The notes under the pieces were generated by a model, which did no database searches, was not told where the DNA came from, and saw nothing but the letters and a program-made list of their open reading frames with translations. A DNA stretch of 51,736 nt from a virus. Taxonomy: Duplodnaviria > Heunggongvirae > Uroviricota > Caudoviricetes. The DNA lies in IMG/VR virus record IMGVR_UViG_2737471852_000002, positions 1-51,736 of that record; one strand, written 5' to 3'. The number at the start of each line of letters is the position of its first letter. Position 1 is the first letter of the stretch. Below, in pieces: positions 1 through 42,716 of this stretch. Position numbers and translations under genes: made by a program.

Positions 1-789
1 TCAATATCTCTTATTAGGGTTTATTGAGTACTTTTTAAGCTTTGAAGCTACCCGACCAGCGTTACTGTTAGCATTGGTGACGTTGGTTTTTTCAGCTTCT
101 GTTAAGTCTGAATAATCCAGCTTCCAAGCCTTATTACATTTAATCTGAGCATCGAGAATATCATTTCTGATAGCTGGAGCGTAACCGGATACATCGCTAA
201 TATTCATTAATTCTTTGCACGATAGCATAGGCGCGTTATTGCGTTCAGTGGTCACGTTACCTGCATTCTTCTTACTGGTCACACCACCATCATTTGTGGT
301 AGCCGTTTTGCCAGTGGCTGCTGAAATATCAGTTTGCCCTACAATAACCTTAAAGTTGATTTCCTGAAAAGTTAGCTGGATTCTTAAGCCGTTTGAAATA
401 CCAACATCTTTAGAGGCTTTAAAACTAGTAATAATGGAATCGTCAATCTTAATCCCGTCTTTACAAATTACCGAAATAATCTGCTTCTGGTCACGCCAGT
501 TTTCAAGGGTGTCGATGAAGTTTTCTACTAATTGACCCTGACGAGTTAGTAATAAACTTCCTTCATAACCAACTACAACGACACCACTAATAGTGATTGT
601 TCTGGGTGCTCTTTGAACATTATCTGTGACGGTTTGCCCTGATTGCATGTTCTGTGTAGTTACCTGCATAGGACTATCAAATTCCATGTTTTCAGTTGCT
701 GATAAGGTTAAGAAGGCATCTACATTATCTCTTAAGTGGAAATAGATGCCATCTTTGCCACTGTAACGAATCTGATTAGAGTAAATCAT
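1..789 (-). CDS. phage tail-associated protein (possible distal tail protein) of the AT-rich module
   Basis: 262-aa ORF immediately downstream of the tape-measure-like gene on the same strand; AAGGAG 6 nt upstream of ATG at 789; no catalytic motif recognised. Confidence 0.4.
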
Positions 790-864
790 TAAATTCTCCT
801 TTGATTTCAAAGGCTTAGTGTATTTTAATCATTTTTAACCAAGCCTTTGATATATAAGTATTTT

Positions 865-904
865 CTCTGTTAAGCGTGAGCTACGTAAAAAATAATTTTT
901 GGTG
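865..904. repeat. 40-bp perfect direct repeat, copy 1 (second copy at 3138-3177)
   Basis: ctctgttaagcgtgagctacgtaaaaaataatttttggtg is identical at both positions; both copies are followed by ttcacgtag about 20 bp later. Confidence 0.85.
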
Positions 905-945
905 TGGGTATTAACTTTGCTTTATTCACGTAGAACACCGTTAAA

Positions 946-3123
946 TCAATCATCTTCTGGGAATGATGAACTTAATAGCGTAGCTTCTGCATATTGGTCG
1001 TAGATATTACTGCTAAAGGTCATAAAGCTGGTTTCATCTGGTTTAATGGCAACTTCACCACCAAGTGAAACTTTCACAGGCTCCTGAATACGTTTGCTCA
1101 AAGCACTAATTTCATCTCTCAGACTCTGAATATCTGCGCTGGTTAATGCTGAATCTTGCTTAATGTTGTTTAACTCTGGATGATTGAATCTTGCAATATT
1201 CATTGTGGCATTGTTAAACAATTCACCCATTGAACTAAAAATTTTATTCCATCCTTCGTTAATCATATTCGGTTTATTAGGGTCACCAGAATACACAGGA
1301 TTAAAGTCACTACCCACACCTACCCCAGATGGATGCATATTAGCGTTTTTGACTACTTCCTGATTCATAAAATCCAGTGCTTTCTTCAATGCATATAAAC
1401 CAAGAGTGACGCCTCTGATTTGTGGAATCATTGAAGCTAATGCTAACGCTGTTTCATAACCGTCATCAGCATAACCGATTGCAAGAGCACTACCTACACC
1501 ACCAGCTACACCTTTCAGTTTTCCACCACCTTTACCAGTAGCTACCTGACCAGCCACCTGATTAGCTCTTGTACCTAACGTTGTGATTGCTCTTGTCAGG
1601 TTCATAACCCCTGTAGTAGCACTGAATAGTGTCTTTGCAGATAACGCTATAGCAAGACCTTTGACAAAATTGATAAAACCATCACCGACTTCATCAAGTA
1701 GTTTTCGTTTAGTGTCATCAAGGCTGTAATAGAGCTGCTTAACCTGTAAAATCCAGCCTTCAATGTGATTGTTAAAGATACGGATGTCATCTACACCAGC
1801 TTTAAGCATGTCGATAAGTCCACCGATAGCATCACCAGCGATAGAAGAACTCATCCCCATTTCACTAAGCAGGTTACTCAGGCTGGATAAGAAGCCGTTT
1901 AGCTCATCCTGTGAACCTGAGAAGATTTTCACCATCGTGTCATCCCAGTTGTTTGCTAACTTACCTAAAGCTGTCTGGGTGCTCTTAGCGACTTCAGCCC
2001 AGCCACCCGCTTTATCAATCATCAAGCCCATCTGTTTAGCGACTTTAGGAAGAGTATCAGCGGAAAGAATCTTCCCGTCTTTCATCGCTTTATCAAGCTC
2101 TGTAGCAGTCATACCCAATGCTTCAGCGAACAGCTTAAATGCACCAGCCATACGGTCACCTAGCTGACCACGTAATTCCTCAGCCTGAATCTTGCCCTTA
2201 GAAGCCATCTGCTCAAAAGCTTTCAAAATGCCGTTTAGCTCGTCGTTAGAAAGCCCCATTAAGCGACTCATAGCCGTTGCATTACCAAATAGCTCCTGTG
2301 TCTGTTCCTGTGACATAGAACCCTGAGCACCTGCTGCAAACTTAGCGTAGCTTGATAGTCCTTCAGAGATATTAAGACCTGTCTTGTCTGCTAGATTTCG
2401 AATAAATACCTCAGCCTCAGAGGCTTTATCACCAAGTACAAACTTAGCGGCTCTCTGTGCGGAATCTCGTTTAAGACCTGCATTCATAATGGCCTTGTAA
2501 GCGTTAAGAGCACCCATCACAGAGTAAAATGCACCAGATAACTTAATTGCATTGCTTGCAAGATTATTAAATGCGTCGCTTGTATTACTAATGCTGGTGG
2601 ATGTATGACCTCTGGCTTTAGCAATTGCTTCTCGGACTGAAGAATTTAACTGAGCCAACTTCTCATTGAATTTTGAATTATCCATCTGACCAGCTTTAGC
2701 AGATAGCCCGTAAAACTGAGATTTGATGTATTTCTGCAAAATAGGGTCAAAGCCTTTTAGCTTGCTCATATTCGCTGAGTAAGCTGCTGTGATTGCTCTG
2801 TTTCCGCTAATTCGTGGCTGTCTTGGTTGTTTTGGAGGATTAACAGTGTCATTAAATCTGGTGGCAAACTGAAATGCTCTTGTGTTTCTTGCTCTCTGTT
2901 CAATCTTGTCAAAGGTCTTATTAAACTTCCTTTCAAGTTGCCCTAAAGAACTTGTCAGATTACTGTCAAGTTGCTTGGTATCGACCTTAAACGCTCTATT
3001 CAAATTACGTTCAATTCTTTGTGCTGACTGCAAAGCTGCCTTTTCAACTCTTTGCAAGCCCTTAATAACGCTCTCGCTGAAGCCTAGCTCAACGATAAAA
3101 CTATCAACTTTAAATTGTGCCAT
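946..3123 (-). CDS. tail tape measure-like protein (AT-rich module)
   Basis: 725-aa ORF, long helical and coiled-coil-like N-terminal half, glycine-rich hydrophobic segments (GKGGGKLKGVAGGVGSALAIGY), followed by a tail-protein-like gene; GAGGTG RBS before ATG at 3123. Confidence 0.55.
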   Translation of the reverse strand: MAQFKVDSFIVELGFSESVIKGLQRVEKAALQSAQRIERNLNRAFKVDTKQLDSNLTSSLGQLERKFNKTFDKIEQRARNTRAFQFATRFNDTVNPPKQPRQPRISGNRAITAAYSANMSKLKGFDPILQKYIKSQFYGLSAKAGQMDNSKFNEKLAQLNSSVREAIAKARGHTSTSISNTSDAFNNLASNAIKLSGAFYSVMGALNAYKAIMNAGLKRDSAQRAAKFVLGDKASEAEVFIRNLADKTGLNISEGLSSYAKFAAGAQGSMSQEQTQELFGNATAMSRLMGLSNDELNGILKAFEQMASKGKIQAEELRGQLGDRMAGAFKLFAEALGMTATELDKAMKDGKILSADTLPKVAKQMGLMIDKAGGWAEVAKSTQTALGKLANNWDDTMVKIFSGSQDELNGFLSSLSNLLSEMGMSSSIAGDAIGGLIDMLKAGVDDIRIFNNHIEGWILQVKQLYYSLDDTKRKLLDEVGDGFINFVKGLAIALSAKTLFSATTGVMNLTRAITTLGTRANQVAGQVATGKGGGKLKGVAGGVGSALAIGYADDGYETALALASMIPQIRGVTLGLYALKKALDFMNQEVVKNANMHPSGVGVGSDFNPVYSGDPNKPNMINEGWNKIFSSMGELFNNATMNIARFNHPELNNIKQDSALTSADIQSLRDEISALSKRIQEPVKVSLGGEVAIKPDETSFMTFSSNIYDQYAEATLLSSSFPEDD

Positions 3124-3137
3124 TGTTCATATTTCAC

Positions 3138-3177
3138 CTCTGTTAAGCGTGAGCTACGTAAAAAATAATTTTTGGTG
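3138..3177. repeat. 40-bp perfect direct repeat, copy 2
   Basis: identical to 865-904; lies 15 bp upstream of the tape-measure-like gene start. Confidence 0.85.
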
Positions 3178-3330
3178 GGTATATCTGTTCAGAAGATTTC
3201 ACGTAGCACATAGGATTCGATAGAAGACTATCTCATATACAAAAAAGGGAGAAACTACCGAATAATATCGATAATCTCTCCCCGTGTTATAGATTCGATA
3301 GAACCTATCTCATACACCCAACCAATTCTT

Positions 3331-3546
3331 TTAATGCATGACAAGATAATGTAGTTCCGTTTCACCTATGATTTGAGCATCAGAAGGAATACGGTCGATA
3401 CACCATTTTGGAATCTTGCGTGTTTTTGGTTTGCGTGAGGTGATAATTTGATGTTTGGTTTTAATTCTTAAGGCTGGCTTAGTTTGTAACTTTAAGTTTT
3501 CACAAACAGACTTAATAGTTTCATAGCGTTCTGTTAAATCAATCAT
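3331..3546 (-). CDS. hypothetical basic small protein
   Basis: 71-aa ORF, lysine/arginine-rich; no family recognised. Confidence 0.25.
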   Translation of the reverse strand: MIDLTERYETIKSVCENLKLQTKPALRIKTKHQIITSRKPKTRKIPKWCIDRIPSDAQIIGETELHYLVMH

Positions 3547-3569
3547 TAATCACCTCACATATTGCATAA

Positions 3570-4274
3570 TCAAACAGCCTTGCTAAATTCTCGTGGAACA
3601 CTCAGAAAATCATTGAAGCTGATAATCTGTGCCAACTCTTGACGGTACTCCTTAGCCAGCGCTTGATGGTCACTAATCAGCTTAGCCAGTCTTGATTTCA
3701 GTAAATTAATCTCATTTTCTCTTGCTTTCATCAGTTTCTCTTTGGCAATTTCTTCAAGCTCAGCTTGTGATTTATCAGCAACAATTAGAGACAGTCGATG
3801 TGGCGCTCTAATGGCTCTTTCTGTACGAACAACTCTTTGACCTTCTGGTAAATCTGCAATCACTTTACCAATCTCTACAGGGTCATACCCCCAACCGTCA
3901 CGGTCTAGTCGAGAGAAATAAGCATAAGGATTGGTTTGAAGCTCCATCAAAATAGCCATTTCGTCAATTTCGTCTTCAAGCTTGGACTGAATTTTCTCGT
4001 AAACACTTCTCATTGCTTCTTGAGAGTCTTTAATAGCTTGGAAATATCGGCGTTGTAGCTTCAACTTCAAATCAAGTTCACACCGTTCGTTCATAGAAAA
4101 ATCAATTTCAACTCTTGGAATCTCGAGTGGTTCTGGTGGAATATATGGACCTTTATTTACTTCGTGTGATTCCCGCCAAGCTCTATCAAAAGATTCACGC
4201 AAACTTAATTCGTGAATATCAAGTGCACTTGGTCGGCTTTCAATAATCATTTCATTTTCATCACGGATAGCCAT
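3570..4274 (-). CDS. hypothetical protein
   Basis: 234-aa ORF in the AT-rich module; charged and helical; no family recognised. Confidence 0.35.
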   Translation of the reverse strand: MAIRDENEMIIESRPSALDIHELSLRESFDRAWRESHEVNKGPYIPPEPLEIPRVEIDFSMNERCELDLKLKLQRRYFQAIKDSQEAMRSVYEKIQSKLEDEIDEMAILMELQTNPYAYFSRLDRDGWGYDPVEIGKVIADLPEGQRVVRTERAIRAPHRLSLIVADKSQAELEEIAKEKLMKARENEINLLKSRLAKLISDHQALAKEYRQELAQIISFNDFLSVPREFSKAV

Positions 4275-4762
4275 TAATACCTTTCCTCTTCTAAGATAAT
4301 TTATGTTTCAGTTTTTAAAAAGCACACCTGACATCCTCGAACTTAGAAGAGGCTTAAAAGGCGTTTGCCAAGTATGCTTTTTAAAAACTGAATAGCCCTA
4401 GATAATTTCTTATAAAGGGCCATTCATAAGGTGAAGAAATTAAAACATCTAAAGGATTCAAACGAATGAACAAAGACTTTTCGAGATGACCTCTCAGGTT
4501 GTATAAGAGGCCATGTAGCGAAAAGCATTGCACCTTTCAGAATGTTCGGTATAGAACATACCTCACCAACTCAGAATATCCATCCATCGGATTATTGAAA
4601 GAAATAAGAGAGAAATTCTCTCTATAATTAAAATTATGTCATGCTTAAGGTTATTTGTCAACAGCTTTTTAACAGATTGGTAACATTAATTCTTATTTAC
4701 CGTATTACCTACCCAGCAACCAACAAATAGCCCTAGCAACGTCCAAGCAATTATTAAACCCA

Positions 4763-5086
4763 TTAGTGAATCCTCACAGAATCCGTCACCAGAATATTGT
4801 CAGCGTACAGGATTGTCACAGCACCTTTCAAAAATTGCTCTGGGGAAATACTGTATTTATTCGTTTGCTCGATAACCAATCTTTTCATGCTGCTGTCTGC
4901 AATTGGTAGCATCATTCGAGGCTCGTTAAACTCCACCGACTGAATAAAGTCAGAGATGTTTTCTGCATTATCGGCCATCAGCTTTAACAGCCTGTCAAAA
5001 TCAATTGTCACACCTGCATCAGTGAAGCTTTGCACCATCATAGCGGTGTCGCTATCAACGAAAATCTGTAGCGGGAAGTTGTTCAT
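4763..5086 (-). CDS. hypothetical protein
   Basis: 107-aa ORF; no family recognised. Confidence 0.35.
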   Translation of the reverse strand: MNNFPLQIFVDSDTAMMVQSFTDAGVTIDFDRLLKLMADNAENISDFIQSVEFNEPRMMLPIADSSMKRLVIEQTNKYSISPEQFLKGAVTILYADNILVTDSVRIH

Positions 5087-5108
5087 TTCTTAAAATCTCC
5101 TTTTTACC

Positions 5109-5240
5109 AGACCTCCTCAATCGCTCTGTAACGAGCTAAACAGTCTTTTTCAGGGGTAGCCTGTACAGTGGTATTACCCACCCTAAAATAAGATAGTTTT
5201 TTGCGTTAGAATGCGATTGAGAGCGTCTGAGAAGCTGTTT
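5109..5240 (+). repeat. about 120-nt repeated element, copy B1 (paralogue at 6796-6905)
   Basis: shared 5' block agacctcYtcaatcgctctgtaacgagYtaaa and 3' block ttgYgtYagaatgcgRttgagRgcgtct; ctcaatcgc / gcgattgag can pair as a long-range stem. Confidence 0.5.
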
Positions 5241-5242
5241 TT

Positions 5243-5530
5243 CTAATTTCTCTTAAAGTCTCGGACTTGCATAAGATTTTTTGGTCTGGTATCGGCTCTG
5301 TTACCATTTCGATGGATAATTTGCTTATTGGATTGATAGCCATGATAAAGGAACCAGACAACATATTTCACATAGAATGTGTATCGACCTATATTAAATG
5401 TTTTGTTGCCGTAGTCGTCGGTATTTATCGTGACTGACCCCCCATCAGACCAGCACAGGGAATCACTGGATTCATCATAGATAAGGTGTTCTGCAAAATA
5501 TCTTCTAACATCTTCATGCCAAGGTTTCAT
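5243..5530 (-). CDS. HNH endonuclease (small HNH_3-type)
   Basis: 95-aa ORF with GYxxN...IHRNGNRADTRPKNL resembling the H-N-G ... DNR ... NL core of phage HNH nucleases; last gene of a 4-gene overlapping operon. Confidence 0.5.
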   Translation of the reverse strand: MKPWHEDVRRYFAEHLIYDESSDSLCWSDGGSVTINTDDYGNKTFNIGRYTFYVKYVVWFLYHGYQSNKQIIHRNGNRADTRPKNLMQVRDFKRN

Positions 5531-5742
5531 AAAACCTCCTCACCCCAATAACCTAATTCAATCTTATGACGTTCAAACCATTCCGGTTTAACTGCTGTTT
5601 TCAGTGTTTCATTTGGGCCAATGGCTTTAATGAAAATATCTTTTGAGTTATGGATGTCACCGAATCCGTTTCCTTTAATCAGGAGGTCGGAGATGTAGCG
5701 AATCATTTTATCTGTGTGGTATTCAAAGGTAACGCATAGCAT
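5527..5742 (-). CDS. hypothetical protein, translationally coupled to the HNH gene
   Basis: 71-aa ORF; its stop overlaps the HNH start by 4 nt. Confidence 0.35.
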   Translation of the reverse strand: MLCVTFEYHTDKMIRYISDLLIKGNGFGDIHNSKDIFIKAIGPNETLKTAVKPEWFERHKIELGYWGEEVL

Positions 5743-6020
5743 CAGACCTCCAGAGACAGTTTGCGAATCTTGATGCTCAATAGACGGGCAATATCAATTT
5801 TAAAGCTGTTAAGTGCCTTCAAAGTATCTAAAGCGTCCGTAGTAATTCGGATGTGCTTACGACCTTTAGAGACTGGATATTTAAGTAAATCCGACTCAGT
5901 GACTTCTTTAGCGATTGCAAGTTGCATAACAGTTTGATGAGGCAAGTTAGTCGCTCGTTTAATTCTGGTAAGCTCGTTAAAAGCTTCCTCTGAAATACGG
6001 GTTAATGTGTGTTTATTCAT
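5742..6020 (-). CDS. hypothetical protein (possible small DNA-binding protein)
   Basis: 92-aa ORF abutting both neighbours; basic and helical. Confidence 0.35.
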   Translation of the reverse strand: MNKHTLTRISEEAFNELTRIKRATNLPHQTVMQLAIAKEVTESDLLKYPVSKGRKHIRITTDALDTLKALNSFKIDIARLLSIKIRKLSLEV

Positions 6021-6021
6021 T

Positions 6022-6579
6022 TTAAAATTCCTCTGTAACTAAATACGGGTCAAACTCGAAATCTGGTTGCTCGTTTTCCATTGGCTCAATATTCCCAACG
6101 GCAACATGATGTTCAACAATACCAATTAGCTTTGCACACATTACAGCAAGCAATGCACAATATTTATCGCTTGGTAATTCATAACTAAGTCTGGTTGCTT
6201 GTCGCTGAAGATAATTTGTCACGGTAGCTGAGTTAATTTCATCAAGATTCTTTAGAATATAAAATAGCTTTCTGTTGTATTTTGGGTGACCTTCGCTTCT
6301 GCAAAATCCGATAATTACATCTTCAAACTTGCGTGATAATTGCTCGTAAGAATCAACGTTAGCCAAATAATTTTTGATGCTGTTCTGGGTGCTCTTTCTG
6401 GTTGACATATAACGACTCCTCGGTGTAATTGCCCGAATTACTTCGTCAATGCCTTTGCGTTCTGCTCTGGTGAACTTGGGTACTTCGTGGCTGGTGGGGT
6501 TGTTTGTGTAAGCGTAGGAGTTGTGCTTGTTGCGTTCTCTCGATGCCTGAAGCATCGCTCTAAATTCTCTGTCGTTCAT
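6022..6579 (-). CDS. hypothetical protein, first gene of the 4-gene operon
   Basis: 185-aa ORF; the 6022/6020 junction and tight packing indicate co-transcription. Confidence 0.4.
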   Translation of the reverse strand: MNDREFRAMLQASRERNKHNSYAYTNNPTSHEVPKFTRAERKGIDEVIRAITPRSRYMSTRKSTQNSIKNYLANVDSYEQLSRKFEDVIIGFCRSEGHPKYNRKLFYILKNLDEINSATVTNYLQRQATRLSYELPSDKYCALLAVMCAKLIGIVEHHVAVGNIEPMENEQPDFEFDPYLVTEEF

Positions 6580-6663
6580 TCATAAGCTAGTCCTTATAAT
6601 TGTTAATTCTCTGTTAACTTATATAGACAATACTAGCATTTTCAAAGACTAATGTCAAGCATT

Positions 6664-6696
6664 TTTTAACATTTCATTAACATCTGTGGTATAATG
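6664..6696 (+). promoter_or_regulatory. predicted sigma70 promoter with extended -10
   Basis: TTAACA, 18-bp spacer ending in TG, then TATAAT (tgtggtataatggg). Confidence 0.4.
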
Positions 6697-6795
6697 GGTT
6701 TATGGGGAGAGTAAAATATGAGGCGTGGCTATGAGGTTTATTCGATAAACCGAATCAACTATGAGAGTGGTCACATGGTTATTGCATTGCACACA

Positions 6796-6905
6796 GACCT
6801 CTTCAATCGCTCTGTAACGAGTTAAATGGCCTCTTCAGGTCAACTCATAAGGTCAGGTACTTTTTTGTGTCAGAATGCGGTTGAGGGCGTCTCACAAGGA
6901 AATTT
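6796..6905 (+). repeat. about 120-nt repeated element, copy B2
   Basis: paralogue of 5109-5240; the two changes within the candidate stem (gcggttgag vs gcgattgag) convert A-U pairs to G-U wobble pairs when read on the + strand. Confidence 0.5.
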
Positions 6906-6906
6906 A

Positions 6907-7083
6907 ATGGTAAATCTCCCTCCTGAACTGGGGTCACCTGATGTATGGGCTGGTGGAGGTATTGGACTTATTGCAGGTCTGCTACTTCGTTACGTCCTTG
7001 TCAGAGTGCTTGTTGTCTTTAAACTGTTCGGTCGTACATGGACGCTTGACCTTAAGGATAACGACCATACAGAACCCCGCTAA
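6907..7083 (+). CDS. possible small membrane protein
   Basis: 58-aa ORF with AAGGA RBS and a hydrophobic core (GGGIGLIAGLLLRYVLVRVLVVF), downstream of the promoter at 6664-6696 and element B2. Confidence 0.25.
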   Translation: MVNLPPELGSPDVWAGGGIGLIAGLLLRYVLVRVLVVFKLFGRTWTLDLKDNDHTEPR

Positions 7084-7200
7084 ACTCCCTTCAAAACCCC
7101 CTGTACGTGATGGTATAGGGGTATCTTTAGCATTTTGTGCTATCTATTAAAAAATAGCTTGACAGAACAGGAAAGCTGTATCTATCAAGCATTCACCTCT

Positions 7201-7385
7201 CTGACAGTAATTTCTAAAAGTTCTTATTTTTCAATAAGTTGTAATTAGCCATATATAGAGAACTGACAAGTCTCTTCACAGTTAACTCTGTAACCTTAAC
7301 AGTAACTTCTAAAAATACTTATTTTTCAATGAGTTGTAATCACCCAATATATAAGACTGTCCAGTACCTTCACAGATAACTTCAA
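7201..7385. repeat. imperfect tandem duplication of about 90 bp
   Basis: acagtaaYttctaaaaRtNcttatttttcaatRagttgtaat ... cttcacag occurs twice head to tail. Confidence 0.6.
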
Positions 7386-8472
7386 GCCTTCTTAGCTATC
7401 CACTAAGCGGGAGAAGAGCGACACCCAAGAAAGGGAAGCTCCCTTCTTAACCGACCTTCTTAACCAGCCCTTTACGTTATTCGTTCACAGTGTTGATAAG
7501 TGGTTTTGCCCTCTGTTTCTGTTATCATCGGGCTTACCTTATCAGGGCTTTGAAATGTCCCTGTAACTTCCCTCTTAACGGGAGAGAAAGAACATAGTGA
7601 CCCCAAGCGAAGCGCCCCTCTAAAAGATTTTTTAGCTATTTTGTTTAAAAACATATCAAACGATACATTTTATTGATTTAGGTCAAAGACAAAAGCATTG
7701 ACAAAATGGTATGATTGTTCACATAGCCCTCTCTTAACAGACTTTTTAAGAGCTTTTGAGAAGTTTGTTAAACAGACACTCTTTCTGGAGTGTTGTCTTT
7801 TACTTAAGAGGCTTGTTTAGGTAACTCTCAAGACATTTCTTAAGACTTCACTGTTAAGATAGAACCTACCTTCGGTTTCATGGTTCTCTTCCTCCCGTTA
7901 AACAGTTCTTCCTAGCAACTTCATAGTTCTCTGTCAAGTATCTTTGAAGATTCTATCAAAACCCTCTAAATCTGACCTGATATAGATGCTGTGAAGGCAT
8001 GTTCTCTAGGTCTGTGTAGCTCACTAAGCGAGAGAGGGGATATGGTGACCATAGGGGAACCCCTCCTACTTAAAAGAACTATTTGATATTATTGTGATGG
8101 TTGTTTAAGATGCAACTGTGCAGACACCTTAACGGTTTCTCTACACCCCTTATAGTCTGGCGAGGTAGGGTACGGCTAGGTAGGGTGTGGTTGGGTCTGG
8201 TATGGGTGGATTGTCGTAGCCACGTTAAAAATCGACTTGTAAAGGGACTCTTTCGGGAGTCCTTTTTAGTTTGTATAAAATCTGTACAGTAACTTTTCAG
8301 ATTCTGAAAATTTTTATAAAAAATAATCAGGCCTCTTCTAAGTCTCTTCAACCAAATCTTTCAAAAATATCACAAGACTATGTATACCTGCTAAGTACCC
8401 GTCACTACGCCTAAGTGGTCCCCTTTGCAAAAAAGCCAAATATCAGTCACATCCATGTAACTATTCAGTAAC

Positions 8473-9021
8473 TTATTTAGCAAGTCTGTAATAAGTTGCT
8501 CTAGAGATTCCTAACTCTTCCTGAATCTGCAACCTCGTTTTACCTTGTGAAATAAGCATCTTTACAGTCTCTGAAGAAGCTTTTACGGGTCTCCCCATGT
8601 GAACCCCTTCAGCTTTAGCACGTTCAATACCAGCCTTTCTACGTTCACTGATAAGGTCTTTTTCAAGGTCAGCTAAACCAGCCATCATAGTAAGCATTGC
8701 TCTACCGATTGGTGTTAATAAGTCGAAACCTTCACGCAAAGAAACAACTCTCACACCTTTAGACTGTAGTGACTCCACGTTAGAGAGCACATCAACGGTA
8801 TTACGCCCTAAACGGTCAATAGCTACCACAACTAACGTATCGTCACACCTTACATAGTTCATCATGTCTCTAAAACCATCTCTGCTGGTGGCCTTTGTAG
8901 TTCCTGAGACAGCCTCATCAATAAACCATTTATCGACCTTGTGAACCTTCTCTATCTGTAGTTTCTGGTTGTCTACAGTCTGGTCTTGTGTTGATACCCT
9001 GCAATAACCAATCACCGCCAT
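8473..9021 (-). CDS. small serine recombinase (resolvase/invertase family)
   Basis: 182 aa; N-terminal VIGYCRVSTQDQ with catalytic Ser context, C-terminal HTH (RLQIQEELGISRATYYRLAK). Confidence 0.85.
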   Translation of the reverse strand: MAVIGYCRVSTQDQTVDNQKLQIEKVHKVDKWFIDEAVSGTTKATSRDGFRDMMNYVRCDDTLVVVAIDRLGRNTVDVLSNVESLQSKGVRVVSLREGFDLLTPIGRAMLTMMAGLADLEKDLISERRKAGIERAKAEGVHMGRPVKASSETVKMLISQGKTRLQIQEELGISRATYYRLAK

Positions 9022-9032
9022 ACATCCCCCTT

Positions 9033-9160
9033 AGAAGTCTCAAAAGTTAGTCTCATAAGTTTAGCTGTCTCATAATCCAAAAACAACCTTTTGAGACTAC
9101 TTGAGGGTGCATTCTACCGTTACGTTGAAAGTGTCTCAAAAGGAAGTCCTTTTAAGACTG
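9033..9160. promoter_or_regulatory. cluster of direct and inverted GTCTCA(A/T)AAG motifs; candidate res/crossover site
   Basis: motif at about 9037, 9051, 9068, 9131 and inverted at about 9088 and 9149; 9133-9158 forms a 26-bp palindrome gtctcaaaag-gaagtc-cttttaagac; directly upstream of the recombinase gene. Confidence 0.4.
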
Positions 9161-9802
9161 GTTATGAAGGAGCTATGAGGTTGATTCCTAGAACTAACCG
9201 AATCAACTATAACCATCACCTCCTAATATTCACGTAGGAAATCGTTAAGGGTTTTATAGTTACACCATGTGACCAACTGCATGAATAGCGTTATATACTC
9301 CTGTATATAGCACTTTTCTAGGAGTCGAGAGAGGAACGACTAACACGATACAGTTTACCCTGAAAAGAGACTTCACAGATTCTCTATATATTTCAATAAG
9401 TTATGCTAAAAAGAGACTATACCGATACTGTATAGAATCTGTGTAAAACTGCTTAGATACTTGGGAAAATGCCTTTAAATTGCATAATCATAGGGGTTGG
9501 AACAAGCCCAACTACACCTGATAAAGCCTGTTATTAACAGGTCTCTTAGAAAACCGAATAGACTTCATTCAAGGGTCATTGAAGTCATAATCATTTCAGT
9601 AGAAAAACCAGGTCTCGATTTTAAATGCAAATAGCAATCATATTCAATAAGGCAAGACGATCAGGATCAGTGAAAATGTCATTTTTGGCGTAATTACCCT
9701 TACTTTATGCATGGCCTCAACAAAGACATCATCTTTCCGTTGCAGATCTTCGCCCTTTCAAATAACGTACTTTACAACTTTCCCGAACAAGGAGTTGTGC
9801 CC

Positions 9803-10217: not shown

Positions 10218-10766
10218 TCAGCTAGCTGGAAACTTTTTATACAGAGTTGAGAGCCCTACTCCATACGTTTTTGATACGCTTTGTCGTGATTCACCGGTTG
10301 CCATCCGCTCCCCCATTTCCCGCCATTGCTCATCCGTGAACTTAGGCCTGCGACCACCAACTCGCCCTTTTGCCCTGGCTACGGCCAGCCCTGCTAAGGT
10401 ACGTTCGCTATTAAGATCAGATTCATATTGTGCTGCGGAAAGGATGTTACGAAAGTTATAGCGGCCGCTGGCTGTTTTGAGATCCACGCCATCGGTAATA
10501 CTGCGGAAGTTGATACCCTTTTCCTGTAACTGCTGGAACATCAACAGCGCATGCAGAACGTTGCGGCCTATCCTGTCCAGCTTCCAGACCACCAGTTCAT
10601 CCCCCGGCTGCATAGTGGCGATCAGCCGTTTTAGAACCGGCCGATTCGATTTCCTCCCGCTGGCATGCTCTTCAAAAATTTTCTCACAACCCGCTGACTT
10701 GAGCGCCGTTAGTTGCAATTCAGTGTCCTGGTGGTTTGTTGATACTCGGGCATAACCGTAAATCAT
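10218..10766 (-). CDS. pin: Pin/Gin/Hin-family DNA invertase (serine recombinase)
   Basis: MIYGYARVSTNHQD N-terminus, resolvase catalytic domain and C-terminal HTH; AGGAGA RBS; immediately beside the invertible tail-fibre segment. Confidence 0.9.
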   Translation of the reverse strand: MIYGYARVSTNHQDTELQLTALKSAGCEKIFEEHASGRKSNRPVLKRLIATMQPGDELVVWKLDRIGRNVLHALLMFQQLQEKGINFRSITDGVDLKTASGRYNFRNILSAAQYESDLNSERTLAGLAVARAKGRVGGRRPKFTDEQWREMGERMATGESRQSVSKTYGVGLSTLYKKFPAS

Positions 10767-10825
10767 GGGATTTCTCCTGTTATGAAAACAGGAGAAACGG
10801 CGAAGCATCACCAGATTTTTGATGG

Positions 10826-10851
10826 TTATAAAAAAGGTTGGTTTGGGAGAA
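10826..10851. other. 26-bp invertase crossover site (hix/gix-like), left
   Basis: TTATAAAAAAGG-TT-GGTTTGGGAGAA; one half-site is the reverse complement of TTCTCCCAAACC, close to the gix/hix half-sites as I recall them. Confidence 0.7.
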
Positions 10852-11334
10852 GGTTCGGCATTACCCGTTGGCGTGCCTGTTCCGTGGCCTTCCGCCACTC
10901 CGCCAACAGGCTGGCTGAAATGCAACGGGGCGGCTTTTTCTGCTGAAGAATACCCGGAACTGGCAAAGGTTTACCCGACAAATAAATTGCCTGATTTACG
11001 CGGTGAGTTTATTCGTGGCTGGGATGATGGAAGAGGGATTGATACTAACCGTAGCTTGCTTTCGTCACAGGGAGATACCATTCGGAATATAACAGGCTTT
11101 ATAAATGAAGTTAAAGGCACCATTGATACAGCAACTTTCAGGTTACAGACTGGTACTGGTGCTTTTGCCTTAGCATCTCAAGCTACGCGAAATATCTATA
11201 ATAACCTAGGCACATATGAAACAAAAAATACCCCTTACACAGGATTCAGTTTTGATGCATCCAGGGTTGTACCAACAGCATCAGAGAATCGCCCTCGAAA
11301 CATTGCATTTAACTATATCGTGAGAGCAGCATAA
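10852..11334 (+). CDS. alternative tail-fibre C-terminal cassette, currently in the unexpressed orientation
   Basis: begins at the crossover with ...GLGEGSALPVGVPVPWP...GWLKCNGAAFS...YPELAKVYP...DLRGEFIRGWDDGRG, the classic variable C-terminal domain of Mu S / lambda Stf-type fibres; no start codon of its own. Confidence 0.7.
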   Translation, partial: GSALPVGVPVPWPSATPPTGWLKCNGAAFSAEEYPELAKVYPTNKLPDLRGEFIRGWDDGRGIDTNRSLLSSQGDTIRNITGFINEVKGTIDTATFRLQTGTGAFALASQATRNIYNNLGTYETKNTPYTGFSFDASRVVPTASENRPRNIAFNYIVRAA

Positions 11335-11939
11335 TGGATAAAGCAATATTAAATAGTGAGCTTATTGCTACAAAGTCGGGGGATATTACCGTTTATAACT
11401 ATGATAGTGAGACGCAGGAATATATTTCAGCTTCAACTGAATATCTTGCCATTGGTGTCGGTATTCCTGCATATTCCTGTTTAGATGCCCCTGGCACATA
11501 TAAGGTGGGTTATGCTATCTGTCGTTCTGCAAATTTTAACTCATGGGAATATGTGCCAGACCATCGCGGTGAAATCGTCTATAGCACCAAAACTGGAGAG
11601 TCAAAAGAAATCACAGCTCCGGGTGATTACCCTGAAAATACCACAACTATCGCCCCGTTAACACCATACGATAAATGGGATGGTGAGAAATGGGTGACCG
11701 ATACTGAGGCACAGCATAGCGCCGCAGTAGACACGGCAGAAGCACAGCGTCAGTCACTGATTGATGCTGCAATGGCTTCCATCAGTCTGATTCAGCTGAA
11801 ATTACAGGCCGGACGGAAGCTGATGCAGGCAGAAACAACCCGGCTTAACGCCGTGCTGGATTACATTGACGCGGTGACGGCAACAGATACCAGCACCGCG
11901 CCTGATATTATTTGGCCTGCTTTCCCTGAGACTGATTAA
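11334..11939 (+). CDS. tail fibre assembly protein (Tfa/U-type) paired with the alternative cassette
   Basis: 201 aa, ATG overlaps the cassette stop; C-terminal LQAGRKL ... LDYIDAV ... WPAFPE typical of Tfa proteins. Confidence 0.75.
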   Translation: MDKAILNSELIATKSGDITVYNYDSETQEYISASTEYLAIGVGIPAYSCLDAPGTYKVGYAICRSANFNSWEYVPDHRGEIVYSTKTGESKEITAPGDYPENTTTIAPLTPYDKWDGEKWVTDTEAQHSAAVDTAEAQRQSLIDAAMASISLIQLKLQAGRKLMQAETTRLNAVLDYIDAVTATDTSTAPDIIWPAFPETD

Positions 11940-12129
11940 CCTCAATCAATATTGGTTCCCCTTTCTCATTAATTGTTAGCTCCATGCCCTGAGGAATTTC
12001 TGTCATAGTAAAAAACCAGTTGTCCTCTGGTAATTCAATAGCCCCGGTCACATCATGAAGACCGGGGATTACTTCAGTCAAAGTAACTGGATTAAACAGG
12101 CGCACAATAAACCCTCCAGGAAAAAGCAT
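11908..12129 (-). CDS. possible small tail-fibre chaperone for the currently expressed fibre tip
   Basis: 73-86 aa ORF directly after the fibre stop inside the invertible segment; no family recognised. Confidence 0.3.
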   Translation of the reverse strand: MLFPGGFIVRLFNPVTLTEVIPGLHDVTGAIELPEDNWFFTMTEIPQGMELTINEKGEPILIEVNQSQGKQAK

Positions 12130-12883
12130 TTGATGATGGTCTGCCGTCGTACATCTGGCAGCGGGCATAAAAACCGGTATTTGTTACCTGATCATCCACG
12201 ATCATTGAAACGTGAACATTATTAGGTGTGCTCTCGTAATCTGTTCTTATTCTTTCCGCGATACTGATAAAACGTGAAAGTTTAGGCAGTGCAATTGGGT
12301 AAACGACTTTAGCCAGTCCATTATCATTAGACCCACCCGTTCCAAAGACTTCTATTGCACCATCTGACCAGCGAATCCATGCACCATTGGCATTAGCTCC
12401 TCGCTGAATGATATATCTGGCTTCTCCCAAACCAAGGTATGTGAGAATGTCAGCAATAGTATTTTTCCCAATAATGTCACGGCCAACAGAAGTTAAATCA
12501 GTCTGCGCTGCTGTATCATTTCCAGTGAAATATGGGAGTTTATTTGCACCTGTTGCGAGCCCAGCTAATGCCGACAGCGTGGCATCAAGCGCCTGGAAAT
12601 CTTTCCCGAAAGCGGTCCCCATTTTGGATATAAACCCGTTCAGGTCTCCATCATCAAGCACATCCAGCCCGCTTTTGTTGGCGGTGTACTGCGCCAACGC
12701 TGCCGCGATAAAGCTGGCTTGCCGAATAGCTTTGTTGACCTGTGCGCTGGATGCTTTACCTGCCGTAAACCCTGAAAGCAGAGCCGGAAGTGCTTCCCAG
12801 TCAGCTTGTGAGGTGACGTTAGCGTTCGGATCAAGCGCGAAAGGTTTAAAGTTGTTTATTGCCATTAGAGTATTGTCCCCCAT
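12092..12883 (-). CDS. tail fibre protein (constant N-terminal part fused to invertible C-terminal part)
   Basis: the reading frame crosses the right crossover site at ...TYLGLGE; Ala/Gly/Thr-rich fibre-like shaft; start codon uncertain (12883 or a downstream ATG). Confidence 0.7.
   Translation of the reverse strand: MGDNTLMAINNFKPFALDPNANVTSQADWEALPALLSGFTAGKASSAQVNKAIRQASFIAAALAQYTANKSGLDVLDDGDLNGFISKMGTAFGKDFQALDATLSALAGLATGANKLPYFTGNDTAAQTDLTSVGRDIIGKNTIADILTYLGLGEARYIIQRGANANGAWIRWSDGAIEVFGTGGSNDNGLAKVVYPIALPKLSRFISIAERIRTDYESTPNNVHVSMIVDDQVTNTGFYARCQMYDGRPSSNAFSWRVYCAPV
12422..12447. other. 26-bp invertase crossover site (hix/gix-like), right
   Basis: TTCTCCCAAACC-AA-GGTATGTGAGAA, inverted relative to 10826-10851 with complementary core dinucleotides (AA/TT). 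Confidence 0.7.
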
Positions 12884-13545
12884 GCTCCAACATCGAACCC
12901 GCCGATGTATTCGTTATCCATATCAAACCCAAAGAATTTAGAGCCTTCTGACGGTGTTTCTACCGAAGGCGTTTCAACATCACCGGCCCATACGCCAGCT
13001 GATTTAACGGTGAGATAGCCCTGTTTGATAGCGGCGATCAGTTCGAGAGACACATCAGAAATATCAGTTTCAGGGAAAACCCAGACCGAAATCGTCATGT
13101 CCTGGTTGTCGACGATCTGCATCCTCAGGCCTGAGCCTGCGGTAGCAGCGTCAAGGATGGGAGGCAGAGAGTCGTTCCGACCGTCCCAGTTGTTGATAGC
13201 GATTTTCGCTTTCAGAATGATGCGGTACGTCTCATCGCTTAGCGTCGTATAGCCAGAATCAGGATCATATGGCCCTTGCCAGATGCCCTGGTCATACCCA
13301 AGCCCGTCAGTGTCCCAGCTGAAATAAACTCCGCTAATTGGCTGGCTGACTATGCGACTGCGTCCGATCCACAGACCGAGGATGTCGAGCTGTACACCGA
13401 CAGCAGTATCGATATCGAAGGCTGTTATAAGCCCTGACATAGTGCTGGACACATCAATCAGCGGGCGGGTGCTCAGATCTATATGGTCAAAAAAGAGTGG
13501 CTTGGTAGCGTGGTAGTTAGTGATCAGTTCGGTGTATTTGCTCAT
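12865..13545 (-). CDS. baseplate/tail protein (Mu gp48-like position)
   Basis: 226-aa ORF between the baseplate J-like gene and the tail fibre gene. Confidence 0.55.
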   Translation of the reverse strand: MSKYTELITNYHATKPLFFDHIDLSTRPLIDVSSTMSGLITAFDIDTAVGVQLDILGLWIGRSRIVSQPISGVYFSWDTDGLGYDQGIWQGPYDPDSGYTTLSDETYRIILKAKIAINNWDGRNDSLPPILDAATAGSGLRMQIVDNQDMTISVWVFPETDISDVSLELIAAIKQGYLTVKSAGVWAGDVETPSVETPSEGSKFFGFDMDNEYIGGFDVGAWGTIL

Positions 13546-14741
13546 GAGGTCACCGTGATACTGATATTCGCGGTGCTACAGGACGCTGAAGCATCATAGG
13601 CAATATCAATGTTTGATGCCGATACGCTGCCAGACGACTTACCGATCAGCAGGTCGGTAATATCGTAATAGCGGGCATTCCCGCCGCTCACAACGCCGAG
13701 GTTTGCCGGGGAATAAATACGGCTCAGCAGAACGTCGTCGCCAATTGTTAGGCCATTTATATAATCGGCAACAGCCTGTTTAATCTGCTCGCCGATTTGA
13801 GAGGTATAGCCGGTAAAAACTTTCAGGGTAATGGCTACGAAAATTGGCACATCGGTAGAGCGCGAAAAACTGATGACGTGAGGATTACCATAAGTATCCG
13901 GCACTGTGACAGAAGTTTTACCGTAAGTTGCGGTTCCCTGCCCTTTATTCCCCCTGATGGTCTGGGCTATCTCGGTAACATCCCCTCCATCGACGATGGC
14001 GGAAATAGAGTGTGGCGGCAGCCCGTTGCTGTCGGTTGCCCCAGTGTCGTTCTCATATAGTTTGTGACGTGTCACGCCAGCAACATTAGCGATAGCACCG
14101 TCGACACCTTCAAACGGTGTGATCGATGGTAGCGCGACGCTTTGCCCCTGCCGAATGCGCAGCTCTGCGTCGGTTTCGGCTGGTGAACCGACAGTAGCCG
14201 CAACTGGATTGGTTACCGACACCCAACCTCGGGTCGGGGTGTTGATAGTGGTAATAGTCCCGGCCAGCGCCGCAACCGAACCGCTATTCGCACATGTGGC
14301 CGTCACCAGCACAGTACCATCAACGCCGATCGCCACACTCGCTGGAAAATTCCAGATAATGCCGTTTTTATCCCGTGCGGAGCCATTCGTGATAGTCGTG
14401 CCTGCCGTACCGGTTAACAGAAGGTCAGCAGTAGAGTTTGTCGCTACTTTTCGCGTGATCCCGTTAATTTTCACATTGTTGCTAAGCGCTGCGGCCTGCG
14501 CTGTCGTCGGTGAAAAAGAGTTGTAGATCTCGATAGCGGTATTGTTAGCGTCATGCACCGCAAGAGCCACCAGCGCGACCATTTGCCCATCTTTGCTGTC
14601 TGGTTCGAGGTAGGCATCACTACCGTAAATCTGCCTGAAATAGCTGGTCAGTGTATCAAGGATTGTCTGGTAATCAGGCGCACTAATCCCCTGGGCGGTT
14701 ACCGTTGCCGATAGCCCCAGCGTGTCGAGGTTCAAAGCCAT
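13542..14741 (-). CDS. baseplate J-like protein (Mu gp47-like)
   Basis: 399 aa, position and size in a Mu-type baseplate cluster; 4-nt start/stop overlaps with neighbours. Confidence 0.65.
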   Translation of the reverse strand: MALNLDTLGLSATVTAQGISAPDYQTILDTLTSYFRQIYGSDAYLEPDSKDGQMVALVALAVHDANNTAIEIYNSFSPTTAQAAALSNNVKINGITRKVATNSTADLLLTGTAGTTITNGSARDKNGIIWNFPASVAIGVDGTVLVTATCANSGSVAALAGTITTINTPTRGWVSVTNPVAATVGSPAETDAELRIRQGQSVALPSITPFEGVDGAIANVAGVTRHKLYENDTGATDSNGLPPHSISAIVDGGDVTEIAQTIRGNKGQGTATYGKTSVTVPDTYGNPHVISFSRSTDVPIFVAITLKVFTGYTSQIGEQIKQAVADYINGLTIGDDVLLSRIYSPANLGVVSGGNARYYDITDLLIGKSSGSVSASNIDIAYDASASCSTANISITVTS

Positions 14742-40397: not shown

Positions 40398-40625
40398 TTA
40401 CTTCGCAATTCCTGGCTGGACGACATTCGGACGCCAGCTCTCCCAGTTAAAATTCACCCAGCGGCCACCGTTCATGGTCATGCGTTCCAACACCCGCTTG
40501 CCTAAAAGAGTGCTCATCGCTGCGAGATGATTTTCCCCAGTACTGCAGCGGATATCCTGAAATTTGCAGCCAGAATGCTGGCCGATGAAGCTAATAACGG
40601 CTTGTTTGCCATAGTTCTTTTTCAT
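40398..40625 (-). CDS. hypothetical small protein
   Basis: 75-aa ORF overlapping the helicase-loader stop. Confidence 0.35.
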
Positions 40626-41473
40626 GACCTGTTCTCCCGATAGCTATCCCAGGTAAACGAAATCGTGCAGCCGCCACCGTCGTTCATGCGGTCGATGACG
40701 CGCTCGCCGATAAACTGCGTCAACTCATTCTTTGGCAGGTTGCTGATCAGGATCGTCGGCTTAAGCTTTTCGTAACGGGTGTTGATGATTTCGAACATAA
40801 TCAGTTTTTCGGCATCGCTGCCGAACTGAACGCCAACCTCATCAACTATCAGCAGGTCTGGCCTGGTGAATTGGCGTATCACATCATCCTCGGTGCGCGT
40901 TGCTGTTTTTGACCAGGTCGATTTAAACTCCCGGGCAATTTTCAGTGCCGTCGTGAAAATGACTGAGCTTTGGTGCTGCTCAATCACATGACGGGCAATT
41001 GCCAGCGCAAGGTGGTTTTTACCAGTACCAGGCTTGCCGCACATAACCAACCCACCTCCCTGCTGAAGGCGATCCGTCCATTTCGAGGCGTATGCCTGGC
41101 AGACTCGCAATGCGCGCTCAGAATCCTTCCCAACCGGCTTGTAGCTGTCCAGAGTACATGTGGAAAAGCGCTCTGGTATTTCCAACTGGCAAAGCAGCCT
41201 TTCGACAGTTTGCTGGCGAACTCGCTTATCCCAGCGAGCCTTCTCATCCTTCAGAAATTTCAGTTCGTCTTCCAGACAGCCTGGGCAGCGTGTCGGCGGT
41301 GATGGCAGATTTATGATGCTGTTAGTCAGGATCCGCTTGCGCTGTTCATACTCGCCATGCTTTTCGCAACAGACACGCTCGATAACCAGTTCGCAATTCG
41401 GGATGTCTTCCGGTGGCTTGCTCAGTTGGTCAAGTATCCGCTCAATGGCAGTTATTTTTTCTTCCAGATCCAT
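40622..41473 (-). CDS. DnaC-like helicase loader (replication protein, functional analogue of lambda P)
   Basis: Walker A GKPGTGKNHLALAIA, Walker B LLIVDEVG; N-terminal Cys pairs; immediately downstream of the O-like gene. Confidence 0.8.
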   Translation of the reverse strand: MDLEEKITAIERILDQLSKPPEDIPNCELVIERVCCEKHGEYEQRKRILTNSIINLPSPPTRCPGCLEDELKFLKDEKARWDKRVRQQTVERLLCQLEIPERFSTCTLDSYKPVGKDSERALRVCQAYASKWTDRLQQGGGLVMCGKPGTGKNHLALAIARHVIEQHQSSVIFTTALKIAREFKSTWSKTATRTEDDVIRQFTRPDLLIVDEVGVQFGSDAEKLIMFEIINTRYEKLKPTILISNLPKNELTQFIGERVIDRMNDGGGCTISFTWDSYRENRS

Positions 41474-41475
41474 GC

Positions 41476-42330
41476 TCAGTCCCTCGCCCATGATGGGATT
41501 TCAGTCTGCCCGTAGTCCTTCCCTGCGAAATTTTCGGCAACTCGCGTCTGTTGGCGTGGTTGAGGCTTGGAACCCTTTGGCTCAAACAAGCCTTGCCAGC
41601 CATTGGCGATGCTCTGATTAATAATTTCGTCAGGGGTGTAGCCGTTCAGCCTGCAGCGGTCGAGCAACTTGATAGCTTGCGTCACGGTCTGCTGAGACTT
41701 GATCGGCTTTTTCAGGTCACGACGGTATGCCACCCATGACGACCAGATTTCTGCAGAAAGCCAGTCAGGCAACTTAACAGCTGACGCATCGAACGAAACC
41801 GCCCGGGGGGATTTAGGGGGGTTATTAATATTGTCTTTATTGTCTTTTGTATGTTTGTCTTTTGTGTTTACCTGATTCGGGTAATAGGCGTTACCTGATT
41901 CGGGTAAACTTTTCTTACCTGATTCGGGTAAATTTACCTCTTTCGGGTAAACATTATTTTTCTTACCTGATTCGGGTAATGTTTCCCATTCGCTGACCAC
42001 ATTATTAATACCGATATTCCGCCCGCTCTGAATAAAAATCCCACGCTTTACCAGAACACTTTTTGCAGCTGAGCACTTATGCGGGAGAATGCCGGTCAGC
42101 TCCGAGATCTGCTCGTTACTGACCCAGTCAGATTTCTTATTGAAGCCGTATGTTTTGCGCATGACGGCCATGAACACCAAAAGCTGATGCTGCGACAAAC
42201 CTGCATGCATGACAGCCTCAAGGAGCTCATTGGCGATACGCGTATAACCATCGTCGAGATCTGCCACGCGCAGCTCCTGTAGTGCCACGACAGGCACAGG
42301 GAAATTGATTACTTCGGCAGTATTTGCCAT
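41476..42330 (-). CDS. O: replication initiator O-like protein
   Basis: N-terminus ...VADLDDGYTRIANELLEA...RKTYGFNK... resembles lambda O; iterons embedded in the gene. Confidence 0.8.
   Translation of the reverse strand: MANTAEVINFPVPVVALQELRVADLDDGYTRIANELLEAVMHAGLSQHQLLVFMAVMRKTYGFNKKSDWVSNEQISELTGILPHKCSAAKSVLVKRGIFIQSGRNIGINNVVSEWETLPESGKKNNVYPKEVNLPESGKKSLPESGNAYYPNQVNTKDKHTKDNKDNINNPPKSPRAVSFDASAVKLPDWLSAEIWSSWVAYRRDLKKPIKSQQTVTQAIKLLDRCRLNGYTPDEIINQSIANGWQGLFEPKGSKPQPRQQTRVAENFAGKDYGQTEIPSWARD
41868..41979. repeat. replication origin iterons (5 copies of a 17-bp repeat) inside the O-like gene
   Basis: four exact copies of TTACCTGATTCGGGTAA plus one degenerate copy, flanked at 41821-41867 by an AT-rich tract, as in ori-lambda. 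Confidence 0.8.
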
Positions 42331-42415
42331 AATTACTCCTGTGAATTTGTTCAGTTAATTCGCGTAGAAAGCCGTTAGTGTTCCCGCACTGCGGCTTTCG
42401 CCCTTCTGTTTCCAC

Positions 42416-42637: not shown

Positions 42638-42716
42638 TTGTGATACTTCCTCTGGTGGTGTTTGGAATGGCTGAATTACTCAGTCAGAACCCGCTGACTG
42701 CTCAATTCAGCTTTGT

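Follow-up and report, generated by a model that had tools for sequence, protein, structure and literature searches.

A Gin/Pin-type tail-fibre inversion locus pairing a divergent gp53-like tip and a small partner protein with a collar-type tip in an Escherichia coli prophage

The invertible segment, its crossover sites and the invertase

The virus record IMGVR_UViG_2737471852_000002 of IMG/VR (Caudoviricetes; 51,736 nucleotides, analyzed over its full length and referred to below as the window) carries a tail-fibre gene that runs into a DNA segment bounded by inverted repeats, beside a gene for a serine DNA invertase. An initial annotation, made from the letters of the sequence, described this locus as a Gin/Pin-type tail-fibre switch. 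The elements of such a switch are all present, namely an invertase, inverted sites and an in-frame exchange of fibre C-termini, and their positions are collected in Table 1.

A repeat search identified a 15-nt inverted pair with 100% complementarity (the exact arms of Table 1). The 15-mer, TTGGTTTGGGAGAAG, occurs in exactly two copies in the window, one per strand, with a chance expectation of 0.08 matches when up to 2 mismatches are allowed. It is the same repeat as that of the P segment of the K-12 element e14, TTGGTTTGGGAGAAGG, which was inverted experimentally by PinE, PinQ and PinR (PMC12529663). Extended to 26 bp, the left site reads TTATAAAAAAGG-TT-GGTTTGGGAGAA and the right site TTCTCCCAAACC-AA-GGTATGTGAGAA. 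The two inverted 26-bp sites with complementary AA/TT cores that had been proposed are borne out by the exact arms, with identity limited to the inner half-site and the 2-bp core, the outer half-sites being unlike. Likewise, the segment adjoining the invertase gene, initially put at ~1.6 kb, spans 10838-12435 and measures 1,598 bp.

Table 1 Features of the fibre locus and of the surrounding prophage (window coordinates)
Feature	Position	Strand	Details
Serine DNA invertase, Gin/Cin/Pin/Hin (Din) family, 182 aa	10218..10766	-	Resolvase PF00239 and HTH_7
Invertase-proximal 26-bp crossover site	10826..10851		exact arm 10838-10852, core TT 10838-10839; repeat search
Silent alternative fibre C-terminus, collar type (PVPWPS...GWLKCNG...), 160 aa	10852..11334	+	Collar PF07484
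Silent standard Tfa, TfaE-like, 201 aa	11334..11939	+	Caudo_TAP PF02413
Small partner ("mini-Tfa"), 65 aa, GTG start	11908..12105	-	homology confined to the N-terminal region of short Tfas
In-frame fibre C-terminus, predicted divergent gp53-like/pyocin-foot lectin domain, 109 aa	12092..12421	-	
Fibre-proximal 26-bp crossover site	12422..12447		within the LGLGE codons; exact arm 12421-12435, core AA 12434-12435
Constant N-terminal fibre part, 148 aa to ...LGLGE	12436..12865	-	phrog_11303 tail fiber protein, E 9e-82
Baseplate wedge (DUF2612/Phage_Wedge1) and baseplate J genes	12865..14741	-	Pfam and annotation of a public assembly
Early region	40622-51736		O-like and DnaC/IstB-like replication genes
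CI-like S24 repressor	43007-43723		
RecE-like exonuclease (1,004 aa) and RecT (372 aa)	45888-50026		
Tyrosine integrase	50543-51736		right end

On the minus strand, the fibre gene passes through the right site at ...LTYLGLGE, in agreement with the read-through at ...LGLGE recognized from the outset, and the last 14 nt coding for the constant 148 residues (12422-12435) fall within the repeat arm of the invertible segment. Up to the crossover site, this constant part is 99% identical to the fibre of a sister prophage in strain GPEC60. The gene had been called correctly, its start less so: instead of the alternative upstream ATG at 12883, which would yield 263 residues, translation most likely begins at the ATG at 12865 and yields 257, because this codon shares bases with the stop of the wedge gene before it (TAATG) and is annotated as the start both in the sister prophage and in a public assembly. 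As wedge and baseplate J genes lie immediately upstream, the fibre gene is placed at the end of the baseplate/tail operon and presumably transcribed along with it.

The opposite strand of the segment encodes what had been read as the canonical alternative, a collar-type tip followed by a standard Tfa of 201 residues, and both assignments are upheld by profile matches. The silent tip matches Collar (E 3.6e-15) and phrog_523, tail collar fiber protein (E 5e-75), and the silent Tfa matches Caudo_TAP (E 6.6e-31) and phrog_105 (E 1.7e-95), being 89% identical to K-12 TfaE by tblastn. In-silico inversion of 10838-12435 fuses the collar tip in frame with the fibre, converting a product of 257 residues into one of 308 residues with Tfa following directly, such that both fibres are intact and each has a partner gene after it. 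Neither orientation shows stops or frameshifts in fibre, silent tip or Tfa, which answers in the negative the question of such decay raised with the initial annotation.

The invertase matches Resolvase PF00239 (E 3.6e-39), HTH_7 (PF02796) and the DNA invertase family phrog_125 of PHROGs (E 6.5e-75). It aligns over its full length with Gin (3uj3, E 1.4e-56), retains the catalytic Ser9 and keeps all residues that are invariant among five compared recombinases. The protein is 100% identical to the invertase of the GPEC60 sister prophage, 55% identical to PinE and 54% to the invertase of P2-like prophages. A second serine recombinase of 182 residues is encoded at 8473-9021 on the minus strand (Resolvase and HTH_7; phrog_125, E 2.6e-58), just 32% identical to the fibre invertase. 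Its surroundings, with a phage remnant on one side and yciI on the other, are poor in long open reading frames (ORFs; 7000-9700), and a search for inverted repeats around the gene returned nothing convincing.

The in-frame tip and its small partner protein

The initial annotation had given the fibre a C-terminus of ~110 residues "with no resemblance to the usual fibre tips". The length holds (109 residues) and the second part does not. By itself the tip has no match in Pfam or NCBIfam at E<=0.01 nor among PDB sequences at E<=1, and its sole library match is phrog_2557 of PHROGs. HMMER, run exhaustively over 1.84 billion representative proteins, yielded just 40 clusters of relatives, and tblastn against 50,697 phage records hit three records representing two phages, Peduovirus phage S164 and Xanthomonas phage DIBBI. 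An AlphaFold2 monomer model built from an alignment of 44 relatives is all-beta and confident (predicted local distance difference test, pLDDT, 89.5; predicted template-modelling score 0.80). Foldseek searches with this model gave E-values of 5e-5 to 4e-4 at a probability of 1.00 and template-modelling scores of 0.62-0.64, and the structural neighbours are those listed in the published work on the pyocin "foot" (PMC6363177), a discoidin-like lectin jellyroll proposed to bind lipopolysaccharide (LPS) sugars via its distal loops (PMC6363177). The predicted structure hence places a jellyroll of the gp53-foot fold at the C-terminal end of the fibre.

Distant relatives point in the same direction. 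Proteins 31-38% identical to the window tip reach the Pfam family Gp53-like_C (PF21882): DIBBI_027 does so at 25.7 bits, the cut-off being 24.9, and the metagenomic fibres P0226 and P0230 give E ~8e-4, under the cut-off. Alignment of the tip family with e14 StfP-type tips by hhalign reached 66% probability (E 5.5e-5, 70 columns), and the family profile matches the R2 pyocin fibre in the PDB marginally (E 0.05). Since fold prediction and distant relatives both point to the gp53-like class, the tip does not lack resemblance to known tips; on its modelled fold and remote homology, we take it to be a divergent member of the known gp53/R-pyocin-foot class. By analogy with the latter, it is probably a binder of surface polysaccharides. 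Pairwise ratios of nonsynonymous to synonymous substitution rates (dN/dS) of 0.04-0.23 indicate purifying selection on the tip. In phage DIBBI, the distant relative encoded by gene 027 is a separate protein of 185 residues just past the baseplate genes. The tip family is also found in genomes of Xenorhabdus spp., a genus for which sister strains are reported to differ by inversions in their tailocin fibre loci (PMC13280938).

A small ORF instead of a standard Tfa follows the in-frame tip, as first noted. Its start was then set at 12168 (86 residues, the ORF being open to there); the GTG at 12105 is most likely the start, as it is the annotated one and distant homologues begin at that position. 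The gene has a 14-nt overlap with the fibre stop and, at its 3′ end, one of 32 nt with the convergent Tfa gene. The protein has no NCBIfam match and no Pfam family at E<=0.01, Caudo_TAP being absent even at E<=1, and comparison with PDB sequences gave nothing but a weak, chance-level match. It does match phrog_5400 over positions 1-66 of 145, a family that the N-terminal parts of two Tfa proteins match as well, those of GPEC60 Tfa (E 1.9e-11) and K-12 TfaP (E 3.3e-4). BLASTP aligns it with the N-terminal 56 residues of a Caudo_TAP protein (E 4e-11) and more weakly with the 139-residue GPEC60 Tfa, which in that strain follows a gp53-like tip (E 5e-6). The small protein has no counterpart of the C-terminal region conserved among Tfa proteins. 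In Tfa-type chaperones, a variable N-terminal domain binds the fibre and conserved C-terminal helices serve trimerization and assembly (PMC9608196). By sequence comparison, it corresponds to the fibre-binding N-terminal domain of TfaP-type proteins without the C-terminal helical region, and it presumably binds the foot domain as a minimal chaperone or as a retained cap.

When the tip profile was run against 185,579 species genomes, it picked up 14 loci, of which 13 are full-length; they belong to Mixta, Kalamiella, Erwinia, Lelliottia, Pantoea, Xenorhabdus and Intestinirhabdus. A homologue of the small protein, 57-61 residues long, overlaps the tip stop or lies just after it in 12 of the 13 full-length loci; one related locus (L019) is without it. 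Phage S164, from the phage collection, likewise carries a homologue at the tip stop, and its small protein is 64% identical to that of the window, its tip 35%. Pairwise dN/dS of the small gene ranges from 0.04 to 0.26, with synonymous divergence up to saturation. As tip and small gene are both under purifying selection, the latter is not a recent stump. A protein of 244 residues from a metagenome contig (P0159) combines a full Tfa-type protein, whose N-terminus resembles the 65-residue protein, with a tip of the window tip's family, into which it continues in frame via a ...VGLRE junction. This arrangement points to a locus that has three or more crossover sites, or to fusion by read-through.

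Cassette exchange between prophages

Of 5,426 complete E. coli genomes, 115 (~2%) contain the part encoding tip and small protein, and there both go by the label "hypothetical protein". In a sample of 40 of the 115, judged from annotation, ~13 copies are in frame and ~20 silent. A P2-like prophage of strain 210205630 harbors the whole cassette at 99.8% identity, and the match covers exactly 10838-12435, from core to core. Outside the sites, the two elements are unrelated, with a 148-residue shaft in the window and a P2 H-type fibre of >460 residues in 210205630. The P2-like prophages of EC43 and 82.0311 contain a cassette 97% identical to that of the window. These two share identical accessions for Tfa, small protein and recombinase and have the cassette in opposite orientations, such that the lectin tip is joined to the fibre in EC43 and the collar tip in 82.0311. 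In experiments with enteropathogenic E. coli (E2348/69; PMC4272514), fibre inversions of P2-like prophages phase-varied, both forms coexisting in cultures. The window tip is also found joined past ...LGLGE to further shafts, including a YfdL-like one of 210 residues, others of 203, 226 and 245 residues and a P2 H-like one of 398 residues.

Conversely, the window prophage is 97.3% identical over 23 kb to prophages located at yciI in other strains, and these sister prophages hold four other cassettes, three of them next to the identical invertase (WP_000639140.1) and that of CH468 next to a variant. GPEC60 combines a recognized gp53-like tip with a 139-residue Tfa; this tip and the window tip share no significant similarity by BLASTP. 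PEC422 carries glycine-rich tips and an IS3 interruption, CH468 another pair beside its invertase of different accession, and AR_0119 (3792-4801 of the locus) two gp53-like tips, one of which is followed by a 77-residue ORF without significant BLASTP similarity to the small ORF of the window. As this ORF is unrelated in sequence to the 65-residue one, short partners beside gp53-like tips may have arisen more than once. A related prophage near torT in E. coli 873.10 has a frameshifted recombinase and a fibre truncated at the C-terminus.

The window cassette behind the window invertase, in colinear arrangement, was not found in any of the 5,426 complete E. coli genomes (at least 80% query cover), and the exact fibre protein occurs in just assembly GCA_000819225.1 and one Logan assembly. 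The Logan contig (SRR2239626) stops ~40 nt past the small ORF, inside the invertible segment and not at a crossover site; its end could be an assembly break at a region of mixed orientation.

Because similarity halts at the sites, the same cassette occurs on other shafts and sister prophages hold other cassettes, these comparisons of sequence indicate that the crossover sites are where unrelated prophages swap entire cassettes. The route would be either invertases or short-homology recombination; PMC3945230 describes relaxed recombination between prophages by RecE/RecT-like enzymes, of which the window prophage encodes a pair. A broader reading is possible, and we put it forward tentatively: the partners of 57-65 residues would form a distinct and widespread minimal class, supporting or capping gp53-like tips as independent fibre-binding domains without C-terminal helices. 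In addition, tip and partner would travel together as whole cassettes from one phage type to another, unrelated one (P2-like, e14-like, YfdL-type and others), the exchange falling precisely at LGLGE-coding sites and proceeding by invertase or short-homology (RecT-type) recombination.

The prophage around the locus encodes an integrase, a repressor of the CI type, a pair resembling RecE/RecT and replication proteins; it also has lysis genes and a full structural module of head and tail genes, the structural genes being 97% identical to those of the sister prophages. With replication, repressor, RecE/RecT and integrase genes present up to the right end, it looks like a complete E. coli myovirus prophage next to yciI, extending from ~10.2 kb to at least 51.7 kb. 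Positions 1-9700 hold the remnant of a different phage-like element, with a tape measure protein at 946-3123, which is ~90% identical to tape measure, baseplate, transposase, recombinase and HNH endonuclease regions of a few E. coli genomes. In other strains it is tonB and yciA, and not this remnant, that immediately precede yciI.

A probable host-range switch and its known counterparts

Taken together, the locus, at the left end of the prophage, is probably an apparently intact host-range switch of the Pin/Gin type, which would alternate between a lectin-foot and a collar-tip fibre, each with its own partner. The constant 148 residues would provide baseplate attachment and shaft and end in the LGLGE that the crossover site encodes. 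The serine invertase would synapse the two inverted sites and flip 10838-12435, a reaction that, by analogy with Gin and Hin, would require host Fis. Each flip would exchange the C-terminal receptor-binding domain plus the downstream partner gene. The present orientation is predicted to yield the 257-residue fibre ending in a trimeric, lectin-like jellyroll foot of the gp53/R-pyocin class, followed by the 65-residue protein, and the other orientation the 308-residue fibre with its collar-type tip, followed by the standard assembly protein of 201 residues. A population of lysogens would thereby release virions with either fibre, and a host-range switch for virions is the simplest reading because the prophage looks complete. 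The sequences show the parts and their integrity either way round, the fold class of the tip, the conservation of tip and partner under purifying selection and the occurrence of the same cassette in both orientations in other prophages; that the segment inverts in the window strain, that Fis is needed, what the partner does and which receptors are bound is what we infer here. Collar-type tips of Mu-like and P2-like fibres recognize LPS, and by analogy both tip classes may well bind LPS sugars. That the two tips have two very different receptors, as the initial annotation had it, is a reasonable if unproven supposition.

Several observations weigh against this interpretation. The two assemblies with the exact fibre share one orientation as far as they reach, and they may represent the same strain. 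The invertase comes from a diverged lineage, 54-56% identical to PinE and P2-type invertases, and its helix E has diverged from that of Gin and PinE. A scan for Fis motifs placed a pair ~47-48 bp apart at ~+104/+151 in pinE and in the P2-like gene; the window invertase gene is without this pair and has one at +67/+117, the motif being weak and degenerate and the scan correspondingly crude. The window tip itself stays under every Pfam threshold, the hhalign link to StfP has just 66% probability, and the model of the partner is moderate (pLDDT 73.6) and without structural neighbour.

Since inversion in the window strain is something we infer, the invertase lineage has diverged and the Fis scan is crude, the switch might be frozen, in that a diverged invertase or an absent enhancer no longer supports inversion and just the lectin-tip fibre is made. 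The shared orientation of the public copies, the missing Fis pair at the pinE position and the altered helix E would all fit, as would decay among relatives, namely an IS3 insertion in one cassette and a frameshift in one invertase. We nevertheless consider a frozen switch unlikely, given that neither the catalytic nor the DNA-binding domain is shortened, that the residues invariant in five recombinases are intact, that the 15-nt repeats are perfect and identical to active e14 sites, and that silent tip and Tfa are free of stops and frameshifts. Moreover, Din invertases act in trans on such sites, as PinQ and PinR invert e14 (PMC12529663). Doubt may also be cast on the partner alone, in that the 65-residue ORF might be the functionless stump of a truncated Tfa, with the tip folding by itself or using Tfa in trans. 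Its match is confined to the first 66 of 145 positions of phrog_5400, it ends where the convergent Tfa gene ends, with the 32-nt overlap, its model lacks structural neighbours and locus L019 does without it. A mere stump would, however, hardly keep a steady 57-65 residues at the tip stop throughout the seven genera listed above and in S164, show dN/dS of 0.04-0.26 at synonymous divergence up to saturation, or be better conserved than its tip, as in S164, and this alternative appears quite unlikely. Finally, the locus could mainly serve the host, inversion making or silencing a protein derived from the fibre that keeps other phages from adsorbing. Such an effect was reported for e14, whose repeat and gene layout the window shares, with PinQ and StfE2 (PMC12529663), and the silent tip has a possible start codon of its own upstream of the site (ORF 10819-11334). 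Unlike e14, the window prophage looks complete, which makes a role in virion host range the simpler one; we regard a host-serving locus as very unlikely.

In E. coli and several other Enterobacterales genera, Xenorhabdus among them, the tip family can now be annotated as a lectin-type receptor-binding domain of the gp53-like class, and the small protein as the mini-partner that belongs to it. The partner, without a region regarded as essential in Tfa, offers a simple test case for the real needs of the Tfa family. Because similarity stops sharply at the sites and five cassettes in total, that of the window and four in sister prophages, occur behind one invertase lineage, the LGLGE site appears to be a natural slot for receptor-binding modules, of relevance to the retargeting of phages and tailocins. 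The interest of the locus is modest and lies in the unannotated gp53-like tip subfamily, the conserved mini-partner and the cassette swaps at LGLGE-coding sites.

Among known inversion systems, the G segment of Mu (Gin; S/U versus S'/U'), the C segment of P1 and Min of p15B likewise rely on a serine invertase, that of the window aligning with Gin over its full length. In Mu, P1 and p15B, the crossover lies inside the fibre gene, and the alternative C-termini each have a downstream partner gene. Both alternatives of Mu use standard Tfa proteins, whereas one alternative of the window is a predicted lectin-foot tip with a mini-partner. For this tip, the closest structural counterparts are AP22 gp53 and the foot of R1 and R2 pyocins (4mtm, 6cl6, 6cu2, 6cxb), with which it shares the predicted fold, the whole neighbour list and the position at the distal C-terminus of a myovirus-type fibre, at an identity of 16-20% and without the window protein matching Pfam. 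The chaperone of R-pyocin fibres is a full-length Tfa-type protein; the use of a chaperone by these fibres is mentioned in PMC13280938. The window partner, by comparison, has 65 residues. The Tfa proteins TfaMu, Pam3 gp25 and e14 TfaP occupy the same place as the small window protein, directly past the fibre gene. The latter aligns with the N-terminal region of the TfaP type and is without the C-terminal helical region that Tfa proteins carry for trimerization and assembly (PMC9608196).

P2-like prophages share with the window the cassette between the sites (99.8% identity in 210205630, 97% in EC43 and 82.0311) and differ in their H-type shaft of ~350-400 residues (148 in the window), in an invertase 54% identical and in their tail module. 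Closest in arrangement is the P segment of e14 in K-12, which has the same 15-16-nt repeat, an adjacent invertase and a fibre gene after baseplate genes. In e14, StfP with its Gp53-like_C tip (E 8.4e-16) is followed by TfaP, and the opposite strand encodes the StfE collar tip and TfaE, beside pinE. Differences concern the invertase (PinE, 55% identical), the tip, which in StfP is recognized by Pfam and in the window forms a divergent subfamily unseen by Pfam and NCBIfam, and the partner, TfaP having 137 residues with the conserved C-terminal Caudo_TAP region and the window protein 65 residues without it. In addition, e14 is a remnant with a DUF2313 wedge, whereas the window prophage looks complete and has a DUF2612 wedge. 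In the K-12 reference as in the window, the gp53-like tip is in frame and the collar tip silent. Since e14 already pairs collar and gp53-like tips, the latter joined to the fibre in the K-12 reference, the window arrangement is the known e14 one, and the in-frame tip is not the non-canonical exception for which it had been taken. The switch itself is nothing new in principle and belongs to the known family of Pin/e14-type inversions.

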